Positions 1,029 to 25,444 of a stretch of 37,127 nucleotides of DNA are shown here, piece by piece; position 1 is the stretch's first letter, and every line of letters starts with the position of its first letter. Source of the DNA: Planctomycetota bacterium (GTDB taxonomy: Bacteria > Planctomycetota > Phycisphaerae > SM23-33); contig JAXHSV010000002.1 in the NCBI GenBank assembly GCA_034190305.1, positions 1 to 37,127 of the forward strand, read 5' to 3'. Position numbers and translations under genes: made by a program. The notes under the pieces are model-generated. The model did no database searches and had not been told where the DNA came from. It saw only the letters and a program-made list of their open reading frames with translations.

Positions 1029-1030
1029 GA

Positions 1031-2697: not shown

Positions 2698-2770
2698 CGC
2701 CGATTATAAGTGTATTGCGACATAGAATGAACTGCCTTTAGATGGGAAAAAACAAACGTCCTGGCAGAAA

Positions 2771-2906
2771 AAGTAAAAAGAAAAGAGAGCGGGATTACAG
2801 GACCACAGACTCCTGGGGCTCCCTGCGAGGGTCCTTCGGAAATATTTTAATGTTCTTTATCCCGTAATCTTAAAATCCCCATAATCCTTCTATCTTTCTT
2901 TTTCTT
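2771..2906. repeat. Low-complexity palindromic intergenic element, GGATTACAG family, copy 1
   Basis: The left arm aagtaaaaagaaaagagagcgggattacagg (2771-2801) is roughly the reverse complement of the right arm ...ccccataatccttctatctttctttttctt (2878-2906). It shares an exact 23-mer, taatcttaaaatccccataatcc (2865-2887), with 28309-28331. Confidence 0.7.
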
Positions 2907-2940
2907 CGATTTGACATTATCATCCAAATATCGGGACAGA

Positions 2941-7763: not shown

Positions 7764-7807
7764 TTACATGCTCCTTTGTTCAGTTTCTTTCCGGCATCGG
7801 CCCGGAT

Positions 7808-8833: not shown

Positions 8834-8914
8834 TTCATATCTCCCAAATATCGTGAAACTTTACTACTACTCCGTCATTACTAAATCCATGAACAATTCC
8901 GGGCGTTGTTTATT

Positions 8915-8996
8915 CGACACAGAGACACAGAGGAACAGAGATATAGAAAAACACAGGACTTTATTAAATTCTCTGAATCTCTGCGTCTCTGTGTCG
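8915..8996. repeat. Low-complexity palindromic intergenic element, CACAGAG family, copy 1
   Basis: The left arm cgacacagagacacagaggaacagagat (8915-8942) pairs with the right arm ttctctgaatctctgcgtctctgtgtcg (8969-8996). The left arm is nearly identical to the reverse complement of 31641-31664. Confidence 0.8.
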
Positions 8997-9045
8997 TATA
9001 ACCATGCTGACAGATTTAAGGTTGACAGAGTACTGCTACACGCCG

Positions 9046-11250
9046 TCAGGATTTACTTCTGACGCTCTCGATCCGCTCGGTAAATTCCTCCGTCTCCCGG
9101 CGAACCTGTTTGACGAAACCGTCGTCTTCAGCCTTGCCCAACACCGCCTTCATCTCCGCCGGAGTCTCGAACGTAATCCGCCGGAAAAGGTTTTCGTCAT
9201 CCTTTTTTCGGGTGGCGTAGGTCTGGTCGCAGATATACTTCTGGATATCCCCGGCCTCATCAAGCGCCTCGGACCAGAGTTCCGGCGTCAGTTCATCGGC
9301 CCCGAGCACTTCCAGCAGCGTCGCAAAGGCGTGACGCTGTTTGTCGAGCGGATATTTTTTCCACAACTTGTCGTAACGGCTGTGGACGGCTTGCCAGTCG
9401 TCGATTTCGCCGGATTTGATGTCGTCCCGAAGAGTCTCGAAGTCGTCGGCCATGACGAGTTGTCCGCCGAGGTTGACCCATTCTCGGCAGCGCGGCCCGG
9501 AAAGTTCGGCGCACATGGACTTCAACGTTGCGCCGGTTTTGGTCTGCATGTAAGTTATCAGCTTTTTGACCGCATAATAATGGAGCATTCGGCGATAGGC
9601 GCGGTATCCTTCGGCAGCCTTGAGGACAACGACCTTTCGACGTGAGTTCTCGATTCCCGGAGCGAGAATTTCCAACTTATCCACAATCTCGCTCGGTCCG
9701 GTCAGAAGCCCTCTTCCTGTTTTCGCTAATTCTTCGGGAGTTTTTTCATCCGGCGAATCGCTTTCCGCCGAGATGTGCGATCGGGCGGTCCACGCCTCCA
9801 GCATCGCCATGGCTGCGAACATTTCCTCGGCGGTGTCGGGCGCGAATGACTCGAACTCGACATTTTGTCGCTTGTGCTTGCGGGTGTCGCGGGCCTGGAA
9901 CTTCCACGAGTTCCGCGCCAATGCGTACATGTTATACAGCCACCAGTAAGCCGGCATAACAGTCAGGCGGTCGGCGGCCAAGTCGTTGGCAACGAGACTG
10001 AACGGCAACGGCACGTCAAGTTCGGACGGGTAGTCGCCCTTGGACAGAAGGACGAAGGAAGCGAATCGACTGTTATGCTTCAGGCTTGTGCAAAGTCCGG
10101 GCCAGAAGCCCCTACCGGCCTGAATTTCACCATCCGGGGATCTGCTGTTGTGGTTCGAGCCGATGGTCGCAGCCGCGGCAATGTTACTCTGGCCCATTAC
10201 CAGCGAGGCAATCAGGAACGAATTGTTGTGATGCTGCTCGTGGGCGGGGAATATAAGGTTGTTGAGCAATTCGCAGCAGGAGACCGTCGAGTTGTCGCCG
10301 AGGTATGAATGGATTAACCTCGCGCCGTACTTGAGGGAACTGTTGTCGCCCATCACGAAACGCACCGCCTTGCAGCCATAGAATACGTGGCAGGCCAGGC
10401 CTATGATTCCGTTGACCAGTTCGACGCCCTCGCCGATCTGGGTCGATTCTTCGTGGCTTGAGTTAATCGTAAGGTTCTTGAGTTTGTTGGCGCCTTTGAT
10501 ATAGGCAGCCGGTCCGATCTTTACATCCTTTATGATTCGGCAGTTCTTGACGACGCAGTTTTCACCCACTGTTCCGTAGAAGCCTCTGCGGGGATCGAAC
10601 ATCTGCTGGGTCATTTGCCTCATCCGCTCGAGCAGTTCGCCGTCGTCGCGGAATTTCGCCCAGAAATAGGCGTCGGCGGGCAGCATTCCGTCGAAGGGCA
10701 TGACGCTCCGCCCGCCCACCTCATTTATCAGGTCCAGCCAGATGCGAGTTTCCTCATCCTCTCCATCCTTGACGATACCGTTGCCGAACCTGGCGTGGTT
10801 CGTAACGTGCATCTCGTCGATATTCAACAGCATGACATGGTCGGAAATGATGTAGTGCGACAGGTATCGGACGTGATGAATGGCCGTATTGTCGCCTATG
10901 TCGCAGTTGATGATGAGGCTGTTGCTCAGACCGACCGGAACGGTCATGTCGTGAAAAGTCAGGCACTGTTGCTCAAGCCGACCTATGCGAACCAGGCCGA
11001 AAAACTGGCAGTTAAGCACCTGATGAGGGCTGAAATTCTCAGTAACCAGCACCGTCTCCCAGTTTTCGGCGGTGTTTCCGTTCTTGACAAGCGTTTCGAG
11101 TTCTTCGGGGCGGAGGTTCCGCCATGCGTCGGCGGGTTTGCCCGACTGAAAATTGCGAAGATAAAACTCGTCTTCGCCCGCCGGTAGAAACCGCTCGGGA
11201 ATAAAACCGCACCCCAGTGATTTTAGAGACGAAATTTGCATCTTGTTCAT
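9046..11250 (-). CDS. large uncharacterised protein, DUF4954-like (beta-helix-like N-terminal two thirds, helical C-terminal third)
   Basis: 734 aa, long clean ORF. The family name comes from my recollection of DUF4954 proteins of Bacteroidota and was not verified. Hexapeptide-like stretches include VGENCVVKNCRIIKDVKIGPAAYIKGANKLKNLTI. Confidence 0.55.
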   Translation of the reverse strand: MNKMQISSLKSLGCGFIPERFLPAGEDEFYLRNFQSGKPADAWRNLRPEELETLVKNGNTAENWETVLVTENFSPHQVLNCQFFGLVRIGRLEQQCLTFHDMTVPVGLSNSLIINCDIGDNTAIHHVRYLSHYIISDHVMLLNIDEMHVTNHARFGNGIVKDGEDEETRIWLDLINEVGGRSVMPFDGMLPADAYFWAKFRDDGELLERMRQMTQQMFDPRRGFYGTVGENCVVKNCRIIKDVKIGPAAYIKGANKLKNLTINSSHEESTQIGEGVELVNGIIGLACHVFYGCKAVRFVMGDNSSLKYGARLIHSYLGDNSTVSCCELLNNLIFPAHEQHHNNSFLIASLVMGQSNIAAAATIGSNHNSRSPDGEIQAGRGFWPGLCTSLKHNSRFASFVLLSKGDYPSELDVPLPFSLVANDLAADRLTVMPAYWWLYNMYALARNSWKFQARDTRKHKRQNVEFESFAPDTAEEMFAAMAMLEAWTARSHISAESDSPDEKTPEELAKTGRGLLTGPSEIVDKLEILAPGIENSRRKVVVLKAAEGYRAYRRMLHYYAVKKLITYMQTKTGATLKSMCAELSGPRCREWVNLGGQLVMADDFETLRDDIKSGEIDDWQAVHSRYDKLWKKYPLDKQRHAFATLLEVLGADELTPELWSEALDEAGDIQKYICDQTYATRKKDDENLFRRITFETPAEMKAVLGKAEDDGFVKQVRRETEEFTERIESVRSKS

Positions 11251-11262
11251 CTAAAAAAATCA

Positions 11263-11338
11263 AACCACAAGGAACACAAAGGCAAAGAATTAATAATTCA
11301 ATTCGTTTTTCTTTGTGCTCTTTGCACCCTTTGTGGTT
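11263..11338. repeat. Low-complexity palindromic intergenic element, CACAAAG family, copy 1
   Basis: The left arm aaccacaaggaacacaaaggcaaagaa (11263-11289) pairs with the right arm ttctttgtgctctttgcaccctttgtggtt (11309-11338). Confidence 0.75.
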
Positions 11339-11345
11339 CATCCCG

Positions 11346-12128
11346 TTACGCACCCGGCGAGCCGGGTTTGTTTTGTTGTATCCAGTCGTAATAATCCCGC
11401 ATCTTGAGTTTACCGGCTGCTGCTTCATCCAGGAAGAACAGGCTGTCGGGATGGAGTTGCAGGGCGCTGGCGGTAATCATGCTTGAAACAGGTCCTTCGA
11501 CGGCGGCTGCGACCGCATCGGCCTTCCCTTCCCCGTTGGCCAGCAATAACAACCTCTCCGCCTCCATGATCGTCCCGACACCCATAGTGATGGAATAGAT
11601 AGGAACTTCTTCTCTGTTGTCGAAAAATCGCGCGTTGTCGTCGATAGTCTGTCTGGTCAGCGTCTTCAGTCGCGTCCGGGAGGACAGGCTGCTGGAAGGT
11701 TCGTTGAATGCTATGTGCCCGTCGGACCCGATACCCAATATCTGAAGGTCGATCCCGCCGCACTCCTCGATCCGGTCCTCGTACCACATGCAGAACGCCT
11801 CGTAGTTGTTGGCTGTTCCCGACGGAACATGAATGTTCTCCTTGGGAATGTTTATATGCTTGAAGAGATTTTCCCACATGAAGTAGTAGTAACTCTGGGG
11901 ATGATCGTGCGACAGTCCGACGTACTCATCCAGGTTGAAGGTGGTAACGTGGGAAAAGTCCAGCCCCTCTTCGGTGTGCATGCGGATGAGTTCCTTGTAC
12001 AATCCCAAAGGCGTTGAACCTGTCGCCAGGCCCAGAACGGCGTCCGGTTTTTCGTTCAGCGTTTCAGCCACAACCTTCGCAGCCGCTGCGCTCATCTTTT
12101 CGTACGTCGGGCATACTATAACTTCCAT
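11346..12128 (-). CDS. nagB: glucosamine-6-phosphate deaminase
   Basis: C-terminal 260 aa of ORF 11346..12461, starting at ATG 12128 (MEVIVCPTYEKM...). Motifs GLATGSTP, TFNLDEYVGL, GIGSDGHIAFNEPSSSLSSRTRLKTL and LQLHP match NagB. The upstream 111 codons of the track ORF have no NagB counterpart. Confidence 0.85.
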   Translation of the reverse strand: MEVIVCPTYEKMSAAAAKVVAETLNEKPDAVLGLATGSTPLGLYKELIRMHTEEGLDFSHVTTFNLDEYVGLSHDHPQSYYYFMWENLFKHINIPKENIHVPSGTANNYEAFCMWYEDRIEECGGIDLQILGIGSDGHIAFNEPSSSLSSRTRLKTLTRQTIDDNARFFDNREEVPIYSITMGVGTIMEAERLLLLANGEGKADAVAAAVEGPVSSMITASALQLHPDSLFFLDEAAAGKLKMRDYYDWIQQNKPGSPGA

Positions 12129-12359
12129 TTCTCGTTCTCCACTATCGGTGTTACCCCCACTGTTATACGCCTTATCCGAATCACGGAACAACTGGACTCC
12201 AGAGGCGCTACCGGGACAGATTCTAACGGTTGCCCCAAACCGGTCAAGCAATTTTCCAAAGGTAAAAAAAAGAGCCGCTCGGTGTAACCGAAAAATTGCT
12301 TGATTGACAACCCAAAATAGAATAAAAGGCGCCATCCCCATTGGAAATGGACAGAAACG

Positions 12360-12869
12360 ATGAAGTTTTGCCTTATAGACAGAATCGAACTTATCGAGCC
12401 TGGAAAGCGGATCGTCGGCATCAAGACGCTGTCGCTGGCCGAGGAGTACCTTGCCGATCATTTTCCCGCCTTTCCAGTGATGCCGGGAGTGTTAATGCTG
12501 GAATCACTGGTCCAGGCCGCCGCCTGGCTTGTTCGACTGGAACAGAATTTCTCCAAAAGCATGGTCGTGCTGTCGGCTGCTCGAAACATCCGATACGGAA
12601 ATTTTGTCGCCCCCGGCGGAACGCTGCGGATCGAGGCTGAACTTATCAAAATCGACGGGGACATCGCCAAATTCAAAGGTTCCGGCGCGGTGGACGACGG
12701 GCAAACCGCTGTGCAGGGACGATTCGAACTGAAATGCTTCAACGTGGCGGATTTCTTCGCCCCCGCCGCTGCCGCTGATGAGCGAATAATCGCCCGACTT
12801 AAAGAAAGGTTCAAACTCATCGGCGGTCCTGAAGCACTGACATCGACGGGAGAAAAACCTCATGAATAA
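12360..12869 (+). CDS. FabZ/FabA-like hotdog-fold 3-hydroxyacyl-ACP dehydratase (paralog 1)
   Basis: 169 aa. DHFPAFPVMPGVLMLESLVQ matches the FabZ catalytic His...Glu segment (HFPxxPxMPGVLxxE). Confidence 0.75.
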   Translation: MKFCLIDRIELIEPGKRIVGIKTLSLAEEYLADHFPAFPVMPGVLMLESLVQAAAWLVRLEQNFSKSMVVLSAARNIRYGNFVAPGGTLRIEAELIKIDGDIAKFKGSGAVDDGQTAVQGRFELKCFNVADFFAPAAAADERIIARLKERFKLIGGPEALTSTGEKPHE

Positions 12870-12898
12870 GATTGGTCGGACCGTCTCCGGCAGAAACA

Positions 12899-12927
12899 TT
12901 GACTTTGCCGGAGAGTTTCTCTATATA
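12899..12927 (+). promoter_or_regulatory. candidate sigma70-type promoter in front of the ACP gene
   Basis: TTGACT (12899-12904), 17-bp spacer, TATATA (12922-12927), about 60 bp upstream of ATG 12990. A 7-bp-stem hairpin ctccggc...gccggag (12884-12914) overlaps the -35 element. Confidence 0.45.
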
Positions 12928-12989
12928 GTTCACGTATTATTTTGCTTGAAAAGGCATTGTTTTCGGAAAGAAACAGGAGAATATACGTT

Positions 12990-13379
12990 ATGCCGATGAC
13001 AGAAGATGAGATTTTTCAGAAGGTTACAGAAACGCTTACCGAAGCGCTGGGCGTCGATGATGACGAAGTAACCCCGGAGGCGACTCTCACGGGCGATTTG
13101 GGGGCGGAATCCATCGATTTTCTGGACATAGTATTCAGGTTGGAAAAGGCTTTCGACATCAAAATACCCCCCGGCGACCTGTTCCCGGACAATGTCCTTA
13201 ACAATCCCGAGTTTGTAGCCGACGGGAAACTCACCGACGCCGGAATGGTCAAACTCAAAGAGTCCATGCCGCACGTCGAATTCGGCGATTTCGACCAGGA
13301 CCCTGACGTCAACAAACTTTCGGAACTGTTCAAGGTCCAGACGATCGTCAACTACGTCCGGAACAAGACCGCCGGATAA
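12990..13379 (+). CDS. acyl carrier protein with a ~45-residue insertion before the last helix
   Basis: ATG 12990 is preceded by AGGAGA (12975-12980). MPMTEDEIFQKVTETLTEALGV...LTGDLGAESIDFLDIVFRLEKAF is a standard ACP core with the DLGAES attachment site. It is followed by a PPGDLF...DVNKLSELF segment, then FKVQTIVNYV. Confidence 0.8.
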   Translation: MPMTEDEIFQKVTETLTEALGVDDDEVTPEATLTGDLGAESIDFLDIVFRLEKAFDIKIPPGDLFPDNVLNNPEFVADGKLTDAGMVKLKESMPHVEFGDFDQDPDVNKLSELFKVQTIVNYVRNKTAG

Positions 13380-13387
13380 ACAGCCTG

Positions 13388-13466
13388 AACCATAAGGAGC
13401 ACAAAGAGAAGAAAAACAGATTTTTTGACTCTCTTGTTCCTTGTGTTCTTCGTGTCCTTTGTGGTT
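13388..13466. repeat. Low-complexity palindromic intergenic element, CACAAAG family, copy 2
   Basis: The left arm aaccataaggagcacaaagagaagaaaaac (13388-13417) pairs with the right arm ctcttgttccttgtgttcttcgtgtcctttgtggtt (13431-13466). Both arms start or end with AACCA(C/T)AA(A)GG, as in 11263-11338. Confidence 0.7.
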
Positions 13467-13500
13467 TATTTTTTCTCCGAGCAAATGGAGCCAATCGGTA

Positions 13501-13977
13501 ATGCGTTGGATTTGGATTGATTGCTTCGAAGAGTTCTCCCCGGGCGTATCGGCTACTGCCGTAAAAAACGTCTCACTGGCGGAGGAACACCTGCACGACC
13601 ACTGGGAAGAGTTCCCGGTCATGCCGGTCAGCCTGATGATCGAGGGAATGGCGCAGACGTCGGGGATACTCGTCGGACAGGCGCGCGATTTCCGGGAAAA
13701 GGTTATCCTCGCTAAAATCTCCAAGGCCGAAATCAGCGAACCGGTCGTGCCCGGCGATCAATTAAAATATCACGCCGAACTGGTAACGATTTCCGACCAG
13801 GCAGCAAGTACGCACGGAACTGTCTCCAAAAACGGTCAACCCATCGGCACTATCGACCTGATGTTCTCGCACATAGACCAGAACCTCGCCGGAACAAAGT
13901 TTCCCGAAGAGAACTTTGTCTTTACGGGTCAGTTTCTCAGGTTGCTGGCGGGTTTTGTGGAAGGACCGGGCCGATGA
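13501..13977 (+). CDS. FabZ/FabA-like hotdog-fold dehydratase (paralog 2)
   Basis: ATG 13501 (MRWIWIDCFEEF...) within ORF 13441..13977. HDHWEEFPVMPVSLMIEGMAQ retains the His and Glu. The stop overlaps the next start (ATGA at 13974-13977). Confidence 0.7.
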   Translation: MRWIWIDCFEEFSPGVSATAVKNVSLAEEHLHDHWEEFPVMPVSLMIEGMAQTSGILVGQARDFREKVILAKISKAEISEPVVPGDQLKYHAELVTISDQAASTHGTVSKNGQPIGTIDLMFSHIDQNLAGTKFPEENFVFTGQFLRLLAGFVEGPGR

Positions 13978-15293
13978 GCGAACGCCGCGTCGTCATTACC
14001 GGCCTGGGCGTGGTAACCGCCGGAGGGACGGGCATAGAAGAACTGTTTGAGAACATCTGCGCGAAGAAGCAGAGCGTCAAGCGCATAGACTTATTCGACC
14101 CGTCCGGTTTCCCCTGCCAGGTTGCGGGCCAACTGGACGACTTCTCCGCCAGTAAGTTCGTCCCCCGTAATTATCGCAAGGCGGTCAAGGTAATGGCCCG
14201 CGACATCGAGATTGCCGTCGCAGCCGCCGACCTGGCTGTCCGCAACGCCGGTATCACTACGCGGGGCATCGACGAACAAAACATAGATGTCGAATCGAAT
14301 CGCTTCGGGTGCAATATCGGAGCCGGGCTTATCTGTGCGGACCTGAACGAACTCGGTTCGGCAATAAACACGTCCGTTACCGACGGTAATTTCGACTTCA
14401 AAAAATGGGGCGCCGAAGGCATAAACAACCTCACGCCGTTATGGCTGCTGAAATACCTTCCGAATATGCTCGCCTGTCACGTAACGATCATCCATGGCGC
14501 CAAGGGGCCTTCCAATACCATTACCTGCGGCGAGGCCTCCGGGTACCTTGCTGCCGGTGAGGCGGCCAGAACTATAGCCCGTGGCGCCGCCGATGTCGCC
14601 ATAGCCGGTGGGGCGGAGAGCAAAGTCAACCCGATGAACCTTCTGCGACAGACGCTGCTTGGGCGAGTTGCCACCGGAGGAAACGACCAGCCAGGACAGG
14701 CATGCAAACCATTCGACGCCGATGCCGACGGAACTGTAATAGGCGAGGGCGGAGGCCTGCTCATCCTGGAAGACCAGGCGCGTGCGGACGAAAGAAACTC
14801 GCGCGTTTATGCGGAGTTTGCCGGCTTCGGTTCCGCCTGCGACCCGGACGGGATGAACTACCTCGAAGCACCAAAAGGCGACGGTCTGGTCAGAGCGATA
14901 TCAGCCGCCATTGCCGATGCGGGAATCTCGCCGGATCAGATCAGTCTGATTATCCCCCACGGAACAGGCGTCCCGGCCGAGGACGCCACCGAAGCCGACG
15001 CCATCGTCCGGGCGCTCGGCGAACGGGCTGACACTGTTGCGGTAAGCCCCCTGACCGGCGGGTTCGGAAATCTCTTCGCCGGCGCCGGCGCGGTGCAAAT
15101 TGCCGTAGCCGCCATGGCGCTGCACAAGCAGACAATTCCGCCCGCCGTCAACTTTGAAAAACCCGCCGACAACTGCCGGATGAATGTCCGAAAGGAACCG
15201 GCTGAAGCGAAATTGCAATATGCCCTCTGCTGCGCACACGCCACCGGTGGGCAGAACGCGGCAGTGATTCTGAAGCGATACGAAGGTGATTAA
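13974..15293 (+). CDS. beta-ketoacyl synthase-like protein with a degenerate active site (chain-length-factor-like partner)
   Basis: 439 aa with a KAS I/II fold throughout (RRVVITGLGVV, GPSNTIT.., ADVAIAGGAE, PFDADADGTVIGEGGGLLILE, PHGTG). The canonical Cys position reads Glu (TCGEASG vs ATACTSG). The KSMTGHLLGAAG segment reads LTGGFGNLFAGAG, so Lys becomes Thr and His becomes Asn. Confidence 0.8.
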   Translation: MSERRVVITGLGVVTAGGTGIEELFENICAKKQSVKRIDLFDPSGFPCQVAGQLDDFSASKFVPRNYRKAVKVMARDIEIAVAAADLAVRNAGITTRGIDEQNIDVESNRFGCNIGAGLICADLNELGSAINTSVTDGNFDFKKWGAEGINNLTPLWLLKYLPNMLACHVTIIHGAKGPSNTITCGEASGYLAAGEAARTIARGAADVAIAGGAESKVNPMNLLRQTLLGRVATGGNDQPGQACKPFDADADGTVIGEGGGLLILEDQARADERNSRVYAEFAGFGSACDPDGMNYLEAPKGDGLVRAISAAIADAGISPDQISLIIPHGTGVPAEDATEADAIVRALGERADTVAVSPLTGGFGNLFAGAGAVQIAVAAMALHKQTIPPAVNFEKPADNCRMNVRKEPAEAKLQYALCCAHATGGQNAAVILKRYEGD

Positions 15294-15341
15294 TGTCTAA
15301 TGACCGTTGACTAATTTCTAACGAATGTCCAATGATTAATG
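15290..15341. repeat. Left inverted-repeat arm flanking the four-helix-bundle gene (GACATTAGTCATT word, reverse-complement orientation)
   Basis: taatgtctaatgacc (15291-15305) is the exact reverse complement of ggtcattagacatta (15742-15756). gaatgtccaatga (15322-15334) is complementary to cattggac... at 15706 onward. Confidence 0.8.
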
Positions 15342-15704
15342 CCCAAAGAAGGTAAGAAAGAGTATGACCTCGAGGAGAGAACGGCTCGCTTTGGACAGAC
15401 AGTGATAGCCTTTGCGAAGAAAGTACCCCAAAACCCTGTAACGATATCGCTGATTAGCCAACTGGTAAGAGCCGGAACAAGCGTCGGAGCCAATTATTGT
15501 GAGGCTGACGACGGTGTATCGAAAAGGGATTTCAGAAACAAGATAGGCATCTGTAAAAAAGAATCGCGGGAGTCCAAGCACTGGGCAAGAATGATCGTTG
15601 CGGCAGTGCCGGAATTGAAAGAAGAAGCAAGACCGTTATGTCAGGAAGCAAAGGAACTCCACCTTATATTTGTTTCGATCTTTCGCAGCGCCGGAAGCGG
15701 TTAG
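15339..15704 (+). CDS. four-helix-bundle protein (23S rRNA intervening-sequence protein / S23p family)
   Basis: 121 aa. LVRAGTSVGANYCEADDGVSKRDFRNKIGICKKESRESKHW matches the family signature (QLxRSxxSIGANxxEA...S..DF..K..I..KE..ET..W). Confidence 0.85.
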   Translation: MPKEGKKEYDLEERTARFGQTVIAFAKKVPQNPVTISLISQLVRAGTSVGANYCEADDGVSKRDFRNKIGICKKESRESKHWARMIVAAVPELKEEARPLCQEAKELHLIFVSIFRSAGSG

Positions 15705-15765
15705 ACATTGGACGTTGGACATTAGTCATTGAATAGACATTGGTCATTAGACATTAGTCATTAAG
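15701..15765. repeat. Right inverted-repeat arm flanking the four-helix-bundle gene: two ~32-nt direct repeats
   Basis: gacattagtcatt occurs at 15718-15730 and 15750-15762; agacattgg occurs at 15703-15711 and 15735-15743. The arm is complementary to 15290-15341. Confidence 0.8.
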
Positions 15766-15808
15766 TCAGCAGCGAGAAAGGCAGGCTAATTCAATAGATG
15801 GGTTATTC

Positions 15809-17092
15809 ATGAGACGGCGAGTAGTCATAACGGGCATGGGATGTGTAACGCCGCTGGGACACGACGTGGAATCAACATGGTCGGCCCTTCTGGCGGGCAA
15901 GAGCGGCATCAGCCCAACCGATTTGTTTGACGCCGAGACGTTCCCTACGACATTTTCATCCCAGGTCAGGGATTTTCAACTCCCGGAAGCACTGTCTGAA
16001 ACCGGAAGGCATGACCGCGCCGGCAGACAGACTAAATTCGCCCTCGCCGCCGCCCTGGAGGCGTGGAAGCAATGCGGGCTGGGCGAAGCCGACGGGCACG
16101 ACCCGGCGCGAATGGGCATCTACCTGGGTTCGGGAGAGGGGAGCCTGGACTTCGATAATTTCACCGGACTTTTAATCGACGCCTGGGGCAATGACGGAAA
16201 ACTGGATACCGTCCGATGGGCCAAACTGGCGCTTGAACGAATGAATGTCCACCGCGAGCAGGAACAGGAGGCCAACATGGTGGTCTCACACCTCGCCGGT
16301 CAATTCAATATCCAGGGTCCGGCGTTCAATATTTTGACCGCCTGCGCCGCCAGCACCCAGGCCATCGGCGAAGCGACTATGATCCTCCGCAGGGGCGACG
16401 CAGACGTCATAATGACAGGCGGGGCTCACAGCATGATCCACCCCTACGGCGTAACCGGCTTCAATCGCCTAAACGCCCTTTCGACTCGCAATGATGAAAT
16501 GCTGACAGCATCAAGGCCTTTCGACCTTACACGCGACGGCTTCGTCCTGGGCGAAGGGGCGGGCATCCTCATACTGGAGGAATACGAATTCGCCCGACAA
16601 CGGGGAGCAAAGATACTGGCCGAGATTATCGGTTACGGCTCCAGCGCCGACGCCTACCGCATCACCGATCAGGACCCCAACGGCGACGGTGGCGCCGCCG
16701 GTATGCGGGCCGCTATGGAAGACGCCGGTGTAAAACCCGAGCAGATAGATTACATCTCCGCACACGGAACCAGCACGCCGCAGAATGACTCGGTCGAAAC
16801 ACGAGCAATTAAAGCGGTCTTCGACGACCTGGCGAAAAAAGTTCCCGTTTCGTCTGTAAAAGGTTCAGCCGGACACCTCATCGCCGCCGCCGGCGTAACA
16901 GAACTGATTACCTGCGTGCTTGCCCTGCGCGACCAGATTCTGCCGCCGACGATGAACCTTCACACGCCCGACCCGGACTGCGACCTCGATTACATTCCCA
17001 ATGAACCCCGAAAGGCCGACGTCCGCACCGTTATGAGCAACTCCTTCGGTTTCGGCGGTCAAAACGATACGCTGATCATTACCAACATCTAG
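15809..17092 (+). CDS. beta-ketoacyl-ACP synthase II-type condensing enzyme (canonical Cys-His-His)
   Basis: 427 aa. LTACAAS (Cys), AHGTSTPQND (His), SSVKGSAGHLIAAAG (Lys, His), FGFGGQN. It carries a ~15-aa insertion relative to E. coli FabF around residues 110-150. Confidence 0.85.
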   Translation: MRRRVVITGMGCVTPLGHDVESTWSALLAGKSGISPTDLFDAETFPTTFSSQVRDFQLPEALSETGRHDRAGRQTKFALAAALEAWKQCGLGEADGHDPARMGIYLGSGEGSLDFDNFTGLLIDAWGNDGKLDTVRWAKLALERMNVHREQEQEANMVVSHLAGQFNIQGPAFNILTACAASTQAIGEATMILRRGDADVIMTGGAHSMIHPYGVTGFNRLNALSTRNDEMLTASRPFDLTRDGFVLGEGAGILILEEYEFARQRGAKILAEIIGYGSSADAYRITDQDPNGDGGAAGMRAAMEDAGVKPEQIDYISAHGTSTPQNDSVETRAIKAVFDDLAKKVPVSSVKGSAGHLIAAAGVTELITCVLALRDQILPPTMNLHTPDPDCDLDYIPNEPRKADVRTVMSNSFGFGGQNDTLIITNI

Positions 17093-17152
17093 AGTGCTCA
17101 TCCTGCGGCTTGCAACCAGGCTACCCTGCACGCTACCATAGTCAGTTATATT

Positions 17153-18259
17153 ATGATCGTCATAGCAACAGAATTGTCAACATCGGCCAAACTGTGGGAA
17201 TTCATAACGCATTACTGGGCGGCGCTGGTAATCGCGGCAACGTGCCTGAGCCTGCTGACCTTTGCGCTGCTGCTGCTGACCAAGTACGTCCGCATATGCC
17301 TGAATATCTTCACCGATACCCCCCTGCCGCTGTCCATTGACGCCAGGGATTTCCAGGTAATCCAGGGCGAGGAGGTCCGCTTCCGCAGTTTCGACGGCAC
17401 GAGTCTGAGAGGCATGTGGCTGCGGACGACAAGCGGTACAGATCGCAAGGGAACTATCGTCTTTTGTCATGAGTTCGGTTCCGATATGTACAGTTGCGCC
17501 CGGTACACCAAGCCGCTCATAGAGGCAGGATTTGACATCTTCACTTTCGATTTCCGGGGACATGGGGACAGCAGCCGCCCGCAAAACTACCGCATTCTGC
17601 AGTGGCCTTCGGATAAGGAACTCGAAGACACCCTGGGAGCATGTGCCTACGTGGAGGACTGCCTCTTATCGGCGGGTGAACCGGTACAGATCGGCGTCTT
17701 CGGCATCAGTCGAGGGGCGGGTGCAGCCATTTTGACGGCAAGTTCAAACCGAAACATCGCCTGCCTCGTTTGCGACGGAGCATTCAGCACCGCCGAGACG
17801 CTCCTGACTCTTATGAAGCGCTGGGCATCCATCTTCGGGCGCGTCAGGCTTGTCTATCAGAACCACCCCGATGCGTTCTGGCGGTTCCTTCTGTGGTGCA
17901 TGATGCGATTTGCCCAGCCAAGGCTTGGTCGGCGATTCCCCTCCGTTCGAAAGGCGCTGGAAAATATGATCGCCCGCCCGACAATGTTTATCCACGGTCA
18001 GAGGGACAGTTACGTCAGGCCCGACCAGGCCGAACTGCTCCACCGCGCCGCAGGACAACCCAAATACCTCTGGATTGTCCCGAAAGCCAAGCACAACCAA
18101 TCCGTTACCACCGCGCCTGAAGAGTATGCAGCCAGGACAACCGCGTTCTTCCGCAAGTATCTCGCCGACGAAAATGTCGATGAAGTTGAAATTACCGGCA
18201 AAGCAACCCGCGGGAATTACTCGAAGGTAAAAGACCGCTTCTCGAAGGTTACGCAATGA
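17153..18259 (+). CDS. membrane-anchored alpha/beta-fold hydrolase
   Basis: 368 aa. N-terminal TM helix (WAALVIAATCLSLLTFALLLL), nucleophile elbow GISRG, and candidate acid and His residues in HGQRDSY and KAKHNQ. Confidence 0.7.
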   Translation: MIVIATELSTSAKLWEFITHYWAALVIAATCLSLLTFALLLLTKYVRICLNIFTDTPLPLSIDARDFQVIQGEEVRFRSFDGTSLRGMWLRTTSGTDRKGTIVFCHEFGSDMYSCARYTKPLIEAGFDIFTFDFRGHGDSSRPQNYRILQWPSDKELEDTLGACAYVEDCLLSAGEPVQIGVFGISRGAGAAILTASSNRNIACLVCDGAFSTAETLLTLMKRWASIFGRVRLVYQNHPDAFWRFLLWCMMRFAQPRLGRRFPSVRKALENMIARPTMFIHGQRDSYVRPDQAELLHRAAGQPKYLWIVPKAKHNQSVTTAPEEYAARTTAFFRKYLADENVDEVEITGKATRGNYSKVKDRFSKVTQ

Positions 18260-19908
18260 GCCTTGCGCGTATATTACTTCGACCGGCCGCTCGCATCGCC
18301 GGAATGCGCGCTTCCCGGCAGGCCCGCGCGTTCATGGACTCGCACAGACACACCCGCAGAGTGCAGGAGTCGCTGCTTGACAGGCTCATCAAGGCCGCCT
18401 CCGACAGCGAATTCGGACGCGAACACAATTTCGGCCGAATCCGCTCTTACGAAGATTTCGCCTCCGCCGTACCGATTGGAGACTATGAAACCCACCGCCG
18501 ATACGTCGAGCGTGTACTTTCGGGCCAGGTCGATGCGATGTTCGCTCCGGGGACAAAGATTCGCATGTTCGCCGTTACCAGCGGAACCACCGGTTCGCCG
18601 AAGCATATTCCGGTTACAGAGCAATTCCTCCGCGATTACCGTCGAGGCTGGAACATCTTCGGAATACAGATGCTTAAGGACCATCCCGACGGCTGGCTGC
18701 GAAAGATAATTACGATCGGCTCATCTGCCCGCGAAAACACCAGCCCGACCGGGCTTCCATGCGGCGCCATCAGCGGTCTGCTGGTGGAAAACCAGCAATG
18801 GGTCGTCCGAAAGATGTACCCGGTCTCGCCACAGGTCAACGATATCGGCGATGCCTCCGAAAAGTACTACGCCATCATGCGATCGTCCGTCGCTCAAGAT
18901 ATCGGAATCATCATCACCCCCAACCCCTCCACGGCGGTCAAACTGGCGCAGATCGCACGCGACAACGCCGAGCGTCTTATCCGCGATGTCCGCGACGGTA
19001 CTATAAGCATCTCCGAAGCCGCATCAATCGAAGCAATGAACGGATTGTCGTTTCGCCCGAACCGCTACGCTGCAAAGCGGCTGGAGGAAATCATCCAACG
19101 CCATGGGCAACTCCTTCCGAAATACTTCTGGAACCTCAGTTTCATGCTAATGTGGACGGGCGGAACGGTCGGGCTGTACCTGCCGAGCATCCGCCGCTAC
19201 TACGGCGACGCGCCCATACGCGACATGGGACTTCTGGCCAGCGAAGGCAGGTTGTCGGTGCCCCTGGCGGATAATTCAGCCTCCGGCGTGGCGGAAATCA
19301 CCTCCAATTTTTTCGAGTTTATCCCAGCCGACCAAATCGAATCGGCCGGTCCCGACGTGCTCGGCGCACATGAACTCAGTCAGGGAGAGGAATATTTCGT
19401 CTTGTTTTCCAACTGGTCCGGGCTGTGGCGGTACAATATCGACGACCGCATTCGTGTAACGGGCCGGTTCGGCGACAGCCCCGTCTTTGAATTCCTCTCC
19501 AAGGGTATGCACGCCTGTTCAATCACAGGCGAGAAGATTACCGAGCACCAGGTGGTCCGCGCCATGGAAGCGGCGTCGGCCCGGGCCGGCGCGGGCATTG
19601 AACAGTTCGTCCTGCAGGGGCATTTCGCCGAGACACCATACTATGAGTTACGCATCGAAGCGTCTGACAAGGTGAACATCATATCACTGGCCCAGGATAT
19701 GGACAAGGCCTTGTGCGGGCTTAACGTCGAATACGATTCCAAACGCCGCTCGGGCAGGCTTGGACCGATACGCCCTGTAGGCGTACCGGCGGGCGCCTTC
19801 GCCGAACAGCAGGCCAGGCAAATCAATCATCACCGCAACCGCCCTGAACAGTACAAGCACAAATTCCTGATGACCGAAGTAGTCAATGCCCCGCCAACCT
19901 GGCAATAA
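18256..19908 (+). CDS. GH3 auxin-responsive-promoter-family protein (acyl acid-amido synthetase-like adenylating enzyme)
   Basis: 550 aa. TSGTTGSPKHIPVT, LWRYNIDDRIRVTG and ITGEKITE are typical GH3 (PF03321-type) motifs. The start overlaps the hydrolase stop (ATGA at 18256-18259). Confidence 0.8.
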   Translation: MSLARILLRPAARIAGMRASRQARAFMDSHRHTRRVQESLLDRLIKAASDSEFGREHNFGRIRSYEDFASAVPIGDYETHRRYVERVLSGQVDAMFAPGTKIRMFAVTSGTTGSPKHIPVTEQFLRDYRRGWNIFGIQMLKDHPDGWLRKIITIGSSARENTSPTGLPCGAISGLLVENQQWVVRKMYPVSPQVNDIGDASEKYYAIMRSSVAQDIGIIITPNPSTAVKLAQIARDNAERLIRDVRDGTISISEAASIEAMNGLSFRPNRYAAKRLEEIIQRHGQLLPKYFWNLSFMLMWTGGTVGLYLPSIRRYYGDAPIRDMGLLASEGRLSVPLADNSASGVAEITSNFFEFIPADQIESAGPDVLGAHELSQGEEYFVLFSNWSGLWRYNIDDRIRVTGRFGDSPVFEFLSKGMHACSITGEKITEHQVVRAMEAASARAGAGIEQFVLQGHFAETPYYELRIEASDKVNIISLAQDMDKALCGLNVEYDSKRRSGRLGPIRPVGVPAGAFAEQQARQINHHRNRPEQYKHKFLMTEVVNAPPTWQ

Positions 19909-19938
19909 AAAACCGGAGCGACCTTCAGGCCGCTCCGG
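19904..19938 (-). terminator. Rho-independent terminator of the prepilin-like gene (possibly bidirectional)
   Basis: Hairpin ccggagcg-a-cct-tc-agg-c-cgctccgg (19913-19938). On the minus strand it is followed by TTTTTTATT (19912-19904). Confidence 0.7.
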
Positions 19939-19970
19939 AATGGTGTTACTCCGCTACTTCAATCCCCGAC

Positions 19971-20855
19971 CTAATTAGTTTCCTTAATCGGCCCGATCAG
20001 GAAACTGTCAACTGTTGACAGATGGTCGGCTAAGTCTATGCTCCCCTCTCCCTGCGTACCCTCGTCGCTCTCGCCGGATGCGCTGTAGATGTTATCGTCG
20101 TCGATTCCAACGTCAGCCCGACTCTCACTGGCTGATACATGATAGTCGGCGTAGAGAACATTGATGGCGTCGCCGGAAAGGTGGTTCTGACTCATGCCCC
20201 TCTTCCTATTCTTATCGCTCAGCGAACTGCTCCAGTCAATCAACGCCGTGGGACTATCATCGTCGTCATCAGTCTTATCGAATTCCGGGGTCTTGTCGGC
20301 CATAATCGCCAACCCTCCCTTGCTGGAGGTCGTATAGCCGGCTTTGTAGTCCATGCCGCCGCTACTAATCGGCGCCTGGAAACTGTAACTAATCTTCGTG
20401 GAGTTAGCCGCGCCGTTTGAAGGGTCGTCCACTTCCGCATCGTAGAAATCCCAGTAATAGTAAGTCTCGTTGCTTTCGGTAAACCTGACGGTCTGCATCT
20501 TGCTGGCGTTACCGTCGCTGGGACAGCGGAATATATCCGCAGGCTGACCCGAGCGAACCACCAGGAACATCAAGGCCGTCGGACTCACCAACGCCGGTGT
20601 CGTCAGGCTTTTTGCATTCGTTCCGGTTTTGACCGACGACCATGTGATACTTCTTATCCACGGTGCAGAATCGTCATTCGCGCTAGCATAGAGCACTAAG
20701 CCCTTCCCGACTCCGTTGAGGTTGGCTGCACAGAGCGCCTGCCTGGCCATTTCCTTCGCACGTCCCAGCGTTGGCAGAAGTATTGACACCAAAAGTGCGA
20801 TAATCGCAACGACCACCAACAACTCAACCAATGTGAAACCTTTCGTTCGCTTCAT
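19971..20855 (-). CDS. prepilin-type N-terminal cleavage/methylation domain protein (type II secretion pseudopilin-like, DUF1559-like)
   Basis: ATG 20855 gives MKRTKGFTLVELLVVVAIIALLVSILLP. Near the C-terminus, NHLSGDAINVLYADYHV resembles the H-X9-DG motif but with different spacing. The tail is acidic and Ser/Asp-rich. Confidence 0.8.
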   Translation of the reverse strand: MKRTKGFTLVELLVVVAIIALLVSILLPTLGRAKEMARQALCAANLNGVGKGLVLYASANDDSAPWIRSITWSSVKTGTNAKSLTTPALVSPTALMFLVVRSGQPADIFRCPSDGNASKMQTVRFTESNETYYYWDFYDAEVDDPSNGAANSTKISYSFQAPISSGGMDYKAGYTTSSKGGLAIMADKTPEFDKTDDDDDSPTALIDWSSSLSDKNRKRGMSQNHLSGDAINVLYADYHVSASESRADVGIDDDNIYSASGESDEGTQGEGSIDLADHLSTVDSFLIGPIKETN

Positions 20856-21166
20856 AATAGTACTCTCCCTATTCTTTCCCAACTGTTCCTTTTGTTCCGC
20901 CGGGATATACTACACAATATACCTTTCCTGTCCGGCTTACATCGTTTGCGGTAGAGGGTTCATTTATGGGGCGTGGGATATTATGGAAGAGTCCATGCAA
21001 CCACAATTACCCTCTGCCGAATCCTACACTTTAATAATAGCAAGTTTACATGGTCCATGTCAATAGCATATCCAGATTTTTTTGCCCCTTTTTAGACGAC
21101 CATTTCAGCCGTTTTTAGCGGCCTGGAGAATCAGGCGAACCGCCGGTCCGGAAAACAAACCTTGTA

Positions 21167-21195
21167 TTGACACAAATCCGCAACGGGCATACTCT
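21167..21195 (+). promoter_or_regulatory. candidate sigma70-type promoter of the UDP-sugar pyrophosphorylase gene
   Basis: TTGACA (21167-21172), 17-bp spacer, TACTCT (21190-21195). It would give a very short leader before ATG 21206. Confidence 0.3.
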
Positions 21196-21205
21196 GTCGA
21201 AGACA

Positions 21206-22645
21206 ATGGCGGCCCTGGAAACAAAAAGAAAACTCCTCCGCACATTCGGGCAGGAACATCTGCTGACCTTTTACGATGAACTCGACCGGGCGTCCCAATC
21301 GGCCCTTCTGGAACAGATTTCCGGCATAGATTTTGAACAACTCACAGGGTTGATACGATCGCATGTTCTTTCCGAGCCGACAGCAGGCATTCCTGCAAAT
21401 CCGTCTCCCGCCCCTATTCTACCGTCCAGGCCCGCCGACGAGGTGTCATCCAACTCATACCACCGCGCCAGGCGGCGAGGGGAAGAACTTATATCTACCG
21501 GCCGGGTGGCTGGGTTCGTCGTCGCCGGCGGGGAAGGAACGCGACTCGGATTCGACGGACCGAAGGGTTGTTTCCCCGTCACACCGGTCAGACACAAGAG
21601 CCTCTTCCAGGTTTTCGCCGAGCAGATACTCTCGGCTGTCCGTCGTTACGGTGCGACCATCCCGTGGTACATAATGACCAGTCAGACCAACGACGGCGCC
21701 ACCCGTGAATTCTTCAATGAGAATAATTACTTCGGCCTGAACCGCCGGGACGTATTTTTATTCACGCAGGGACAGATGCCGGTAACGGACCTGAACGGGA
21801 AAATCCTCCTGTCCGACAAGGGTTCGATCGCCTTCAGCGGCGAGGGCCACGGCGGATGCCTCAGCGCGTTGCGCCAAAGCGGCGCCCTGGACGACATGGC
21901 CGCACGCGGCATCGAGTACATCTCCTATTTCCAAGTGGACAACCCGCTGAATCATTGCATCGACCCGCTCTTTATAGGGCTGACCGCCGACGTCTGCGCC
22001 GAGATGTCCGCAAAGGCGATCCCGAAACGCGGACCGATGGAAAAACTCGGGAACTTCTGCATGGTCGACGGAAAAGTAACGGTCATCGAATACTCCGATC
22101 TTCCCGAAGAAGCCGCCCGCCAAACCAAGCGGGACGGTTCGCTCGTTTTCAGCTCCGGAAGCATCGCTATTCACATCCTCTCTCGCAGGTTCGTCGAACG
22201 ACTGACAGCCGACGGACACTGCAGGCTGCCGTTTCACCGGGCAATCAAGAAGTCCGCTTACATCGACCCGTCCGGGACGCTTGTCGAACCGGCTGAACCG
22301 AACGCCGTAAAGTTCGAGCGGTTCGTTTTCGACGCTATGCCGCTGGCCGAGAAGGTCGTGGTTCTGGAAACGCTTCGGTCCGAAGAGTTCTCACCCGTCA
22401 AGAACGCAGACGGAGAGGGAAGCCCCGCAACATCCATTCGAGACCAGGTTCGCCGGGCGGCACGCTGGCTGGAATCGGCGGGGCTGACCGTTCCAAAAAA
22501 CGACGACGGCGAACCGGACGCAGTCATCGAAATCAGCCCACTGCTTGCAAGCGACGCCGAGCAACTCGCCGAAAACATCGACCCGAACCTGAAAATCAAG
22601 GCTGGAGAAAATGTCTATCTTGACACGCCTTCGCCGGAACGTTAG
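21206..22645 (+). CDS. UDPGP-family UDP-sugar / UDP-N-acetylglucosamine pyrophosphorylase (eukaryotic UAP1-like type)
   Basis: ORF 21167..22645; start taken at ATG 21206 (MAALETKRKLLRTFGQEHLL...). VAGGEGTRLGFDGPKG, YFQVDNPL and KFERFVFD are UDPGP (PF01704-type) motifs. Confidence 0.8.
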   Translation: MAALETKRKLLRTFGQEHLLTFYDELDRASQSALLEQISGIDFEQLTGLIRSHVLSEPTAGIPANPSPAPILPSRPADEVSSNSYHRARRRGEELISTGRVAGFVVAGGEGTRLGFDGPKGCFPVTPVRHKSLFQVFAEQILSAVRRYGATIPWYIMTSQTNDGATREFFNENNYFGLNRRDVFLFTQGQMPVTDLNGKILLSDKGSIAFSGEGHGGCLSALRQSGALDDMAARGIEYISYFQVDNPLNHCIDPLFIGLTADVCAEMSAKAIPKRGPMEKLGNFCMVDGKVTVIEYSDLPEEAARQTKRDGSLVFSSGSIAIHILSRRFVERLTADGHCRLPFHRAIKKSAYIDPSGTLVEPAEPNAVKFERFVFDAMPLAEKVVVLETLRSEEFSPVKNADGEGSPATSIRDQVRRAARWLESAGLTVPKNDDGEPDAVIEISPLLASDAEQLAENIDPNLKIKAGENVYLDTPSPER

Positions 22646-22820: not shown

Positions 22821-23462
22821 GTGGATTTGATTGTTTTTCTGTCACAGGCTGTTGTAATTTCATTTTCGGGTGTTATGGCGCCCGGACCGGTAACGGCTGT
22901 AACGCTCGGACTTGGGGCGCGAAACCGACATGCGGGCGCTTTGGTGGCTATCGGGCACGGGATCGTGGAATTCCCCCTGATGGTGCTGATTATCCTGGGC
23001 ATAGGAGGGATGTTTGAGATTCCCGCGGTTCGGATCGGAATCGGACTGGCCGGCGGCGCGATGTTGATCGCGATGAGCGTAAGCATGCTCATGCAGGTCA
23101 GGAAGCCCGCCCCCTCCCAAAGCGCCCCCGCCATCAGAGGGCCGGTGTTGACCGGAATCCTCCTGTCGATCGGAAATCCATATTTCCTGCTCTGGTGGGC
23201 GACTGTGGGGCTTGCCCTTGCTTCCCAGGCGGTCAGCCTGGGGCTTATTGCGTTCGTGTTTTTCGCGGTCCTGCATTGGTTATGCGACCTTGTCTGGCTC
23301 GAAGCGCTGTCGGCGGCGAGTTACCGAGGCTCAAGAATCATCGGAGGCGCAAGCCGGCGGATCGTCATGGCAATCTGCGCCGCAGCCCTGTTTTTCTTCG
23401 GCCTGGTGTTCCTGTTCAAAGGCGCCAGGAGACTGATAGGCGCAGCCACGGAATCCGCCTGA
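22821..23462 (+). CDS. LysE/RhtB-family amino-acid exporter
   Basis: 213 aa with a GTG start and about 6 TM helices. The N-terminal SGVMAPGPVT and the central GNPYFLLWW are typical of LysE-type translocators. Confidence 0.7.
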   Translation: MDLIVFLSQAVVISFSGVMAPGPVTAVTLGLGARNRHAGALVAIGHGIVEFPLMVLIILGIGGMFEIPAVRIGIGLAGGAMLIAMSVSMLMQVRKPAPSQSAPAIRGPVLTGILLSIGNPYFLLWWATVGLALASQAVSLGLIAFVFFAVLHWLCDLVWLEALSAASYRGSRIIGGASRRIVMAICAAALFFFGLVFLFKGARRLIGAATESA

Positions 23463-24865: not shown

Positions 24866-25417
24866 CTACCACATCGGACCGTTCAGGTCGATCTTACCGG
24901 TGGGCCACTGCTCCAAAGGCATCCGAACCGGGCAGATCATAATGTATCCGACTCCGTTGTGGTCCCACCTTCTGAATGTTCCGTCGGGGTTTTCGATGAT
25001 CGTCTCGTTTTCAATCTTTTGCCAGCCGAAGCGGGCATAGAATCCATACTTGTCACGGTGGCAGAAAAGCAGGCCGAAGTCAAACCGGGCTTCTGTTTGA
25101 AAACGTTCCCGGACAGCCTGCATGACGGCCTTGCCCGCACCGCTGCCCCGGACGTCCGGATGAGAGCAGACATTCGCAACGCCGCCGATGAGCAGTTCTT
25201 TTTCGCCGGCGTCGATGATTCGAGGCAGCAGGCGGGCGCCGGCGACAAGCCGACCGTCGCGGCGAACGCCGAACCACAAATCGTCTTCCGGCGGCGTGTG
25301 ATACCACCGCTGGTGGGCAAAATCCGCCGATTCGGGAAAAGCAAGGTGCTGAAGTTCCAGAATTTCCCGATCCTGCCGCGGAGAAATGTCCTGTTCTTTC
25401 GTAATTTCAACTTTCAT
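24866..25417 (-). CDS. GNAT-family N-acetyltransferase
   Basis: ATG 25417 (MKVEITKEQ...). The acetyl-CoA-binding segment is [14 protein letters not shown]. The stop lies 8 nt upstream of the thiC start. Confidence 0.7.
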
Positions 25418-25444
25418 CAGGAAAACCTCGCATCTGCCGCGCAT

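Follow-up and report, generated by a model that had tools for sequence, protein, structure and literature searches.

A specialised type II fatty acid synthase-like gene module beside a hydrolase-GH3 gene pair in Phycisphaerae

A block of co-directional genes lies at positions 12360-19908 (+ strand) of a 37,127-nucleotide stretch of DNA from a Planctomycetota bacterium (Phycisphaerae; SM23-33), which corresponds to positions 1-37,127 of the forward strand of contig JAXHSV010000002.1 (GCA_034190305.1) and is referred to as a whole as the window. The block comprises seven named genes and one interrupting four-helix-bundle gene (Table 1). The first five, module 1 or the core (12360-17092), encode a FabZ-like dehydratase (DH1), a private acyl carrier protein (ACP), a second FabZ-like dehydratase (DH2), a ketosynthase-like protein (KS-like) and a catalytically complete ketosynthase (KS); the last two, module 2 (17153-19908), encode a membrane-anchored α/β-hydrolase and a GH3-family amido synthetase. 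All seven co-directional open reading frames (ORFs) listed in the original prediction, an earlier reading of the sequence alone, are present on the + strand, as are the two 4-nt ATGA overlaps (gap -4) that it described at the DH2/KS-like and hydrolase/GH3 junctions, and the chosen gene starts agree with homologue lengths. The four-helix-bundle insert that it had implied is a TIGR02436 gene (15339-15704) that splits the KS pair. Pfam and NCBIfam scans covered the 8 ORFs of the block and 20 larger ORFs elsewhere in the window.

The arrangement was followed through a tblastn census of 85 genome-derived and 80 metagenome loci (∼170 related loci, labelled with L-numbers such as L001), with gene order scored in the best 80 genome stretches and, among the 80 metagenome loci, in the 31 that are longer (≥7 kb). 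Searching species-representative genomes with patterns for the KS-like family gave at least 600 matching stretches and at least 591 confirmed relatives; the best 80 relatives are nearly all labelled Phycisphaerae or Planctomycetota, as are all homologues that carry a source name. The order DH1-ACP-DH2-KS-like-KS is kept almost everywhere in the scored loci, a minority being split into the KS-like-KS pair alone or the DH-ACP-DH genes alone, while the hydrolase-GH3 pair adjoins the core only in a subset made up of the window's clade and the deep-branching L046. Because the core mostly occurs without the pair nearby and the pair also occurs without a nearby core, the apparent seven-gene cassette is a five-gene core and a separable two-gene module, which tend to stay close in part of the class; a single seven-gene unit was rejected by the census together with a tree. 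The compact cassette of the original prediction recurs as a whole in several lineages, so that the refuting case it named, a lack of co-conservation in other genomes, is mostly not borne out, but the conserved unit is five genes long. Flanks of the core vary between loci and consist of ordinary genes (e.g., SerRS, ComEC). Clustering of flanking ORFs for other conserved lipid partners around the core gave only SerRS, ComEC, GNAT, ABC-2, SPFH and similar, and no relevant partner genes were found at the split loci.

Table 1. Features of the gene block and its downstream border, in window coordinates
Feature	Coordinates	Strand	Support
DH1, FabZ-like hotdog dehydratase, 169 aa	12360..12869	+	PF07977, 60 bits
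Sigma-70-like TTGACT-17-TATATA 5' of the ACP gene (candidate promoter)	12899..12927	+	sequence reading
Private ACP, 129 aa, insertion-bearing	12990..13379	+	PF00550 over aa 10-65 only
DH2, second FabZ-like dehydratase, 158 aa	13501..13977	+	PF07977, 51 bits
KS-like, inactive FabF paralogue resembling a chain length factor, 439 aa	13974..15293	+	ketoacyl synthase N- and C-terminal domains
Insertion with four-helix-bundle gene (gene at 15339-15704)	15287..15760	+	TIGR02436, PF05635
KS, catalytically complete FabF-type ketosynthase, 427 aa	15809..17092	+	ketoacyl synthase N- and C-terminal domains; TIGR03150
Membrane-anchored α/β-hydrolase, 368 aa, OlsI-like by position	17153..18259	+	Abhydrolase_1, Hydrolase_4
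GH3-family acyl-acid amido synthetase, 550 aa	18256..19908	+	PF03321, PF23571, PF23572 (GH3 N, M and C domains)
GC-rich hairpin after the GH3 stop, before a convergent pseudopilin gene	19913..19938		11 pairs, 9 GC, then T-run

Module 1 is a second, specialised gene set resembling a fatty acid synthase (FAS) and distinct from the housekeeping type II system (FAS II), a status that for the window's own genome we infer from its relatives. Immediately upstream of the module in L043 (1668-7137) lies plsX-fabH-fabD-fabG-acpP-fabF, each protein of which passes its NCBIfam cutoff (FabF 601 bits, AcpP 106), and L046 carries fabD-fabG-acpP (1-3128), each above cutoff, on the contig that also holds the module, hydrolase and GH3 gene, with the partial 3' part of a FabF-like gene beside it, cut by the locus edge and detected by tblastn only. 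In these two relatives the module is therefore not the only such set in the genome, and the original objection that it would be the ordinary set of an organism with no other fabF, fabZ or acpP is countered by their separate fabF and acpP sets. The same prediction's wording, "separate from housekeeping fab genes," is true of L043 and L046 but not readable from the window, which shows no other fab genes among the 20 larger ORFs scanned outside the block. Equivalog cutoffs for FabF, FabZ and AcpP were reached by none of KS (475.8 bits against 493.75 for TIGR03150 fabF), DH1 (94.8 against 113), DH2 (80.2 against 113) and ACP (54.5 against 70.45). It is thus very improbable that the block serves as the elongation set of the organism's housekeeping FAS II: in favour of this, KS falls only slightly short of the FabF cutoff and passes the NCBIfam KAS II subfamily model, ACP exceeds the cutoff of one ACP subfamily model by a narrow margin (66.9 against 66) and no other fab gene is visible in the 37-kb window, but against this stand the canonical, above-cutoff fab genes on the module's contig in L043 and L046, the low scores of the FabZ-like proteins and ACP, an ACP insertion of ∼45-50 aa and a KS-like protein that is catalytically dead in all 82 orthologues. 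A housekeeping identity was rejected on the canonical fab clusters beside the module. The distance between the two kinds of gene in these lineages is 1.5-8 kb, so that FAS sets are sometimes neighbours.

Alignment with T. thermophilus FabF places Glu at the active-site Cys of KS-like (TCGEASG), Thr at the Lys and Asn at the second His, with the first His kept, in agreement with the predicted absence of the canonical Cys, Lys and second His. None of the 82 KS-like orthologues has the active-site Cys, 50 having Glu, 29 Asp, 2 Ala and 1 Ser in its place, and the second His is mostly replaced by Asn, Ser or Thr. The downstream KS, described earlier as canonical Cys-His-His, has the complete Cys/His/Lys/His set, which is kept in 75/75 orthologues. 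KS-like and KS are 32% identical and align without large gaps at about aa 115-160, where alignment of KS with FabF needs a gap; identity of KS to one bona fide Phycisphaerae FabF is 40%. Their genes overlap or abut in most relatives, the inactive one upstream, and in the window this adjoining pair is separated by the four-helix-bundle insertion. Since KS keeps its Cys/His/Lys/His, KS-like never has the Cys, the genes overlap or abut and the layout is that of amxFabFmut/amxFabF2 from anammox bacteria (see below), the two proteins are predicted to form a heterodimer like that of a ketosynthase and chain length factor (KS/CLF). Gln in place of the active-site Cys is the hallmark of CLFs from aromatic polyketide synthases (PKSs) and is not among the residues found at this position. 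In the Protein Data Bank (PDB), KS is matched best by E. coli FabF (367 bits), ahead of the actinorhodin KS (273) and ishigamide KS (227), and KS-like by T. thermophilus FabF (227 bits, against 168 for the actinorhodin CLF). PDB entry 9s5h, the one entry with two different KS chains, which may be the anammox KS heterodimer, gave 278 and 193 bits (9s5h_B/C) against 367 for E. coli FabF, and neither window protein is specifically closest to it.

The FabZ active site combines the His of one subunit with the Glu of the other. Both residues are retained in DH1 and in DH2 of the window, which are 36% identical to each other. Among orthologues, the catalytic His34 of DH1 is present in 66/66 and its Glu48 in 57/66, with Gln in the remaining 9; in DH2 the pattern is reversed, Glu48 being present in 77/77 and His34 in 55/77 only, and the DH2 His is missing in 18 of the 66 loci where both dehydratases are comparable. 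Because DH1-His and DH2-Glu are invariant and the reciprocal pair decays, DH1 and DH2 would form a heterodimer with one obligatory composite site, for which this residue pattern offers a clean sequence signature. Precomputed Pfam assignments on DH orthologues include PF22818 (ApeI-like).

The ACP carries its insertion between helix II/III and helix IV and its phosphopantetheine Ser41 within DLGAESID. All 72 unique orthologues (126-139 aa) have DLGAESIDFLDIVFRLEK and the same insertion before helix IV; at E ≤ 1e-30 a profile reached 124 representatives of 50% identity clusters, and the 10 full-length ones chosen for alignment share 38-57% identity with the window ACP and again bear the insertion. 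An AlphaFold2 model (predicted local distance difference test score 85) consists of a normal ACP core with an added hairpin and helices, and Foldseek matches to it are led by ordinary ACPs of 75-80 aa, with the insertion unmatched. Spacers of ∼120 nt lie on both sides of the ACP gene (12870-12989 and 13380-13500), whereas the other genes overlap or abut, and the corresponding spacers span ∼45-220 nt in the four relatives checked. The TTGACT-17-TATATA reported upstream of the ACP gene is present and, being sigma-70-like, is a candidate promoter. A promoter-like motif at -91 to -115 of the ACP gene was found in 5 of 148 unique upstream regions, as compared to 0.5% of random windows, all five within the window's clade. 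A widely conserved promoter before the ACP gene was rejected, since a similar motif occurs in these five regions only.

In module 2, a single strongly hydrophobic stretch near the N terminus of the hydrolase (aa 24-42; KD19 2.60) is consistent with the predicted transmembrane anchor, and the protein has a Ser-Asp-His triad (Ser186 in GISRG, Asp285, His314) that is invariant in 11/11 orthologues. The GH3 protein has the family's fold and its three nucleotide-binding motifs (TSGTTGSPK, LLASEG and WRYNIDD), conserved in 8/8 orthologues. The two genes lie in one operon, with the hydrolase directly upstream of GH3 in 7 of 8 GH3-centred lineages. This pairing is reminiscent of OlsH and OlsI of the GH3-dependent ornithine-lipid pathway, published in 2025, in which the GH3 enzyme OlsH uses ATP and a free fatty acid for the N-acylation of ornithine and the α/β-hydrolase OlsI O-acylates the product (PMC12493201). 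Amidation of an acyl chain by GH3, as hypothesised in the original prediction, is a plausible hypothesis. A stieleriacine-type N-acyl tyrosine route was rejected, since that route uses NasY and not GH3 (PMC12479983).

The preferred explanation, which we hold at a probability of about 0.5, is that two lipid modules adjoin, one making a private acyl-ACP that supplies the OlsHI-like aminolipid step of the other, the coupling being read only from gene neighbourhood. What is shown directly is the gene content, the residue patterns, the conservation and, in relatives, the non-housekeeping status; the two heterodimers, the ketoreductase, enoyl reductase and acyltransferase working in trans, the product and the coupling are deduced. 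The insertion-bearing ACP would be loaded in trans, since module 1 has no acyltransferase, and KS together with its Glu/Asp-substituted partner would condense malonyl units as a KS/CLF-like heterodimer. FabD would be borrowed from the housekeeping set, as would FabG for ketoreduction and a FabI-type enzyme for enoyl reduction, if it occurs, while DH1:DH2 would dehydrate at the site formed by DH1-His and DH2-Glu, the outcome being a segregated pool of special acyl-ACP. In module 2, GH3 would adenylate a free, possibly 3-hydroxy, fatty acid and amidate an amino acid, a head group that need not be ornithine. The hydrolase could act as an O-acyltransferase and/or thioesterase, taking acyl groups from, or releasing them from, the private acyl-ACP and so bridging the modules, and the special chain would end in an N-acyl or acyloxyacyl amino-acid lipid. 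Coupling is favoured by three features of the neighbourhoods: no more than 6 kb separates core and GH3 in 6/8 GH3-centred lineages despite differing flanks and inserted genes (contiguous with hydrolase-GH3 in two, one to three genes away in three, and convergent at a distance of ∼2 kb in one); the hydrolase follows KS without GH3 in a further three loci (L008, L014 and L021); and the linkage recurs in L046. The proposal also fits two gaps stated for the OlsHI pathway, namely which acyl donor ("X") OlsI uses and where OlsH obtains free fatty acid in vivo (PMC12493201). That the insertion-ACP is itself the in vivo acyl donor or source for the GH3/hydrolase pathway, giving a previously unseen class of Phycisphaerae membrane lipid with a chain amide- and ester-linked to an amino acid, is a tentative extension that may well prove wrong.

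Several observations weigh against coupling. Most core-bearing genomes have no hydrolase or GH3 within 8-10 kb of the core, so core function needs no module 2, at least in cis; in one of the eight GH3-centred lineages (L086) hydrolase-GH3 stands without a core within 9 kb and in another (L088) GH3 stands alone. Linkage inside one clade could be inherited synteny. OlsH works on free fatty acids without an ACP (PMC12493201). The window GH3 matches the OlsH model NF052613 with 110.1 bits in two stretches (best aa 21-225, E 1e-31), below the equivalog cutoff of 620, and plant JAR1 over nearly its full length (aa 24-516) with 90 bits; because the two matches are about equally weak, its substrates cannot be inferred from them. 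Likeness of the hydrolase to OlsI is by position alone, no NCBIfam model matching it in that comparison even at E ≤ 10. A different destination for the acyl chain is suggested by the distant L091 (280-11193; ACP 47% identical), where lpxA, two lipid A acyltransferase genes (PF03279), lpxB and three other genes stand between DH1-ACP-DH2 and KS-like-KS. These points feed the main rival, to which a substantial minority of the probability falls: the modules would be functionally independent, the core making a chain for lipid A secondary acylation, in the manner of the AcpXL system, or bulk membrane fatty acid, and hydrolase-GH3 being a self-contained OlsHI-like synthase that uses ordinary fatty acids. 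Independence would account for the core without a nearby hydrolase or GH3 in most of the ∼170 loci, for L086 and L088, for an ACP-free OlsH, and for the two module halves bracketing lpx genes in L091, an arrangement that recalls acpXL-fabZXL-fabF1XL-fabF2XL-lpxXL (PMC5613085). However, lpx genes occur near the module in L091 only, 1 of ∼170 loci, and a general linkage of the core to lipid A was rejected on that count; nor does independence predict a core within 6 kb of GH3 through changing flanks and insertions, or a hydrolase placed directly after KS in three lineages that lack GH3 there.

A third explanation, in which the product is a polyene or otherwise unsaturated chain with an amide cap, made by a highly reducing type II PKS of the aryl-polyene or ishigamide kind with ketoreductase from FAS and no enoyl reduction, is unlikely. 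It draws on the combination of a KS and inactive partner, two dehydratases and a private ACP with no enoyl reductase or ketoreductase gene, on the ApeI-like PF22818 of the DH orthologues, on weak NCBIfam matches to the cispentacin type II PKS-like AmcB, AmcE and AmcF, and on amide formation by GH3 enzymes (PMC12493201). Both KS proteins are nonetheless nearest to FabF and not to PKS KS/CLF, and the Cys position of KS-like carries Glu/Asp where an aromatic-PKS CLF has Gln. None of the 28 scanned window ORFs encodes a ketoreductase, adenylating (aryl) starter enzyme, second ACP, extra (ApeR-type) KS, glycosyl- or acyltransferase or LolA/MMPL protein; the earlier statement that ketoreductase, acyltransferase, LolA/MMPL and ammonia-lyase genes are absent is borne out for these ORFs. 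Conservation across the class beside housekeeping genes is also more in keeping with a core membrane function than with a pigment.

The four-helix-bundle gene (TIGR02436/PF05635) is bracketed by 60-nt imperfect inverted repeats of TAATGTCTAATGA-like units. Homologous genes (35-40% identity) occupy the KS-like/KS junction in L031, L037, L042, L062, L112 and L172, and L044 has a homologue upstream of the module; the appearance is that of a small insertion cassette with one recurrent site. The hairpin after GH3 is terminator-like, scored on the - strand, and marks the end of the co-directional block. An Rfam scan of 11000-21200 gave no match.

Around the module (window 6480-12461 and 21167-22645) lie amino-sugar and nucleotide-sugar genes, namely those for an NTP_transf_4/hexapeptide protein, a GFO/IDH/MocA oxidoreductase, DUF4954 and NagB, with a UDPGP-family uridylyltransferase downstream; DUF4954, NagB, pseudopilin and UDPGP are arranged in L087 as in the window. 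The NagB ORF (11346-12461, - strand; 371 aa as listed) runs over the DH1 start. The L087 orthologue has a length of 261 aa and the Pfam domain of the window protein begins only at aa 122, and the true start of this ORF is on these grounds probably ∼110 codons downstream, which would leave a divergent intergenic region of ∼230 bp before DH1. In the region 3-5 kb downstream of GH3 are a LysE-family amino-acid exporter (22821-23462, + strand) and a GNAT acetyltransferase with a weak NodA-like match (24866-25444, - strand). Upstream of the module in two seven-gene lineages (L001, 1347-4025; L089, 1-132) is an Aminotran_3-family aminotransferase; ornithine and acetylornithine aminotransferases belong to this family.

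Phycisphaerae are abundant anaerobes that degrade polymers, and to our knowledge almost nothing has been described of their lipid chemistry; literature searches found no paper on the Phycisphaerae module or its GH3 association and nothing useful on Phycisphaerae aminolipids. That a second FAS-like module with its unique ACP extends across the class implies a lipid that is conserved and uncharacterised, and the OlsHI-like pair beside it bears on both gaps of the GH3 ornithine-lipid pathway, what donates acyl groups to OlsI and where the free (hydroxy) fatty acid of OlsH comes from. If the modules are coupled, this would be the first case of a GH3 amide synthetase that draws on a private type II FAS and would answer where OlsHI-type pathways get their acyl substrates. 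The idea of a KS/CLF-like FabF heterodimer would also be widened beyond anammox bacteria.

Among known systems, module 2 is closest in architecture to OlsH/OlsI of Singulisphaera acidiphila (PMC12493201; NF052613). Planctomycete olsH and olsI always form one operon (PMC12493201), and the window likewise has a GH3 amide synthetase and an α/β-hydrolase in one operon, with three GH3 nucleotide-binding motifs; by analogy an amino acid would be N-acylated at the expense of ATP and then O-acylated. The hydrolase-GH3 pair, which the original prediction noted to be no part of known KS/CLF or aryl-polyene clusters, thus does have a precedent, in the OlsI/OlsH gene architecture. Differences are nevertheless considerable. 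Beyond its GH3 score of 110 against 620 bits, motif III of the window protein, GLWRYNIDD, is nearer the plant form than the GMWSHLIGD of OlsH; the window has no olsG methyltransferase; its genes run hydrolase then GH3 with a 4-nt overlap, and the hydrolase is membrane-anchored at its N terminus. No neighbourhood with KS, DH or ACP genes is reported for the OlsHI operon, and surveys of OlsH homologues (≥30% identity) found them in Isosphaerales and Gemmatales and in no Phycisphaerae orders (PMC12971839).

Module 1 has a close counterpart in kind in anammox Cluster I (KustE3603-3608), which holds amxACP, amxFabZ and amxFabFmut/amxFabF2 (bioRxiv 10.64898/2026.05.19.726425; PMC10139942; PMC2649909), the last two shown experimentally to form a KS/CLF-like heterodimer (bioRxiv 10.64898/2026.05.19.726425). 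Both systems belong to the same phylum and have a private atypical ACP, one or more FabZ variants and an inactive FabF paralogue just upstream of the active one. In contrast to the window, Cluster I has B12-radical-SAM and phytoene-desaturase-like genes, none of which occur in the window or in its relatives' loci; it has one dehydratase and not two, its Cys is replaced by Val/Thr and not Glu/Asp, and its ACP is atypical through a long 3-10 helix and not a 45-50-aa insertion. FabF paralogues with Asp or Glu for Cys163 had already been noted in R. baltica in 2009 (PMC2649909). With Planctomycetota KS/CLF-like FabF pairs and a private ACP on record, the system is not undescribed in kind, as originally proposed, although its reading as a specialised FAS/PKS-like set, with two hotdog dehydratases, a private ACP and a catalytic KS next to a degenerate one, is supported.

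NCBIfam PRK06508, PRK06501 and PRK06519, which we take to represent proteins of the AcpXL very-long-chain fatty acid cluster of Rhizobiales, have cutoffs that no window protein reaches. The AcpXL cluster (acpXL-fabZXL-fabF1XL-fabF2XL-lpxXL; PMC5613085) resembles the window in its compactness, dedicated ACP, FabZ paralogue, two FabF paralogues, separation from housekeeping FAS and use of FAS enzymes in trans, and in the presence of a consuming acyltransferase gene alongside. In the distant L091, lipid A acyltransferase genes are bracketed by the module. An LpxXL-type (PF03279) acyltransferase is, however, found neither in the window nor in any of the ∼170 other loci except L091, and the window differs by its two dehydratases, the ACP insertion and hydrolase-GH3 as the adjacent consumer. 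Aryl-polyene (APE) and highly reducing type II PKS clusters (ApeO/ApeC, ApeI/ApeP; PMC8358021) share with it a KS and CLF-like pair, a private ACP and a hotdog dehydratase pair thought to be heterodimeric (PMC8358021), with the ApeI-like Pfam family as a further link; they differ in that the window proteins are nearer FabF and FabZ and in the accessory genes listed above. Set against these systems, the block is a new form of kinds already known, in which a specialised type II FAS-like set has an OlsHI-like aminolipid gene pair next to it.

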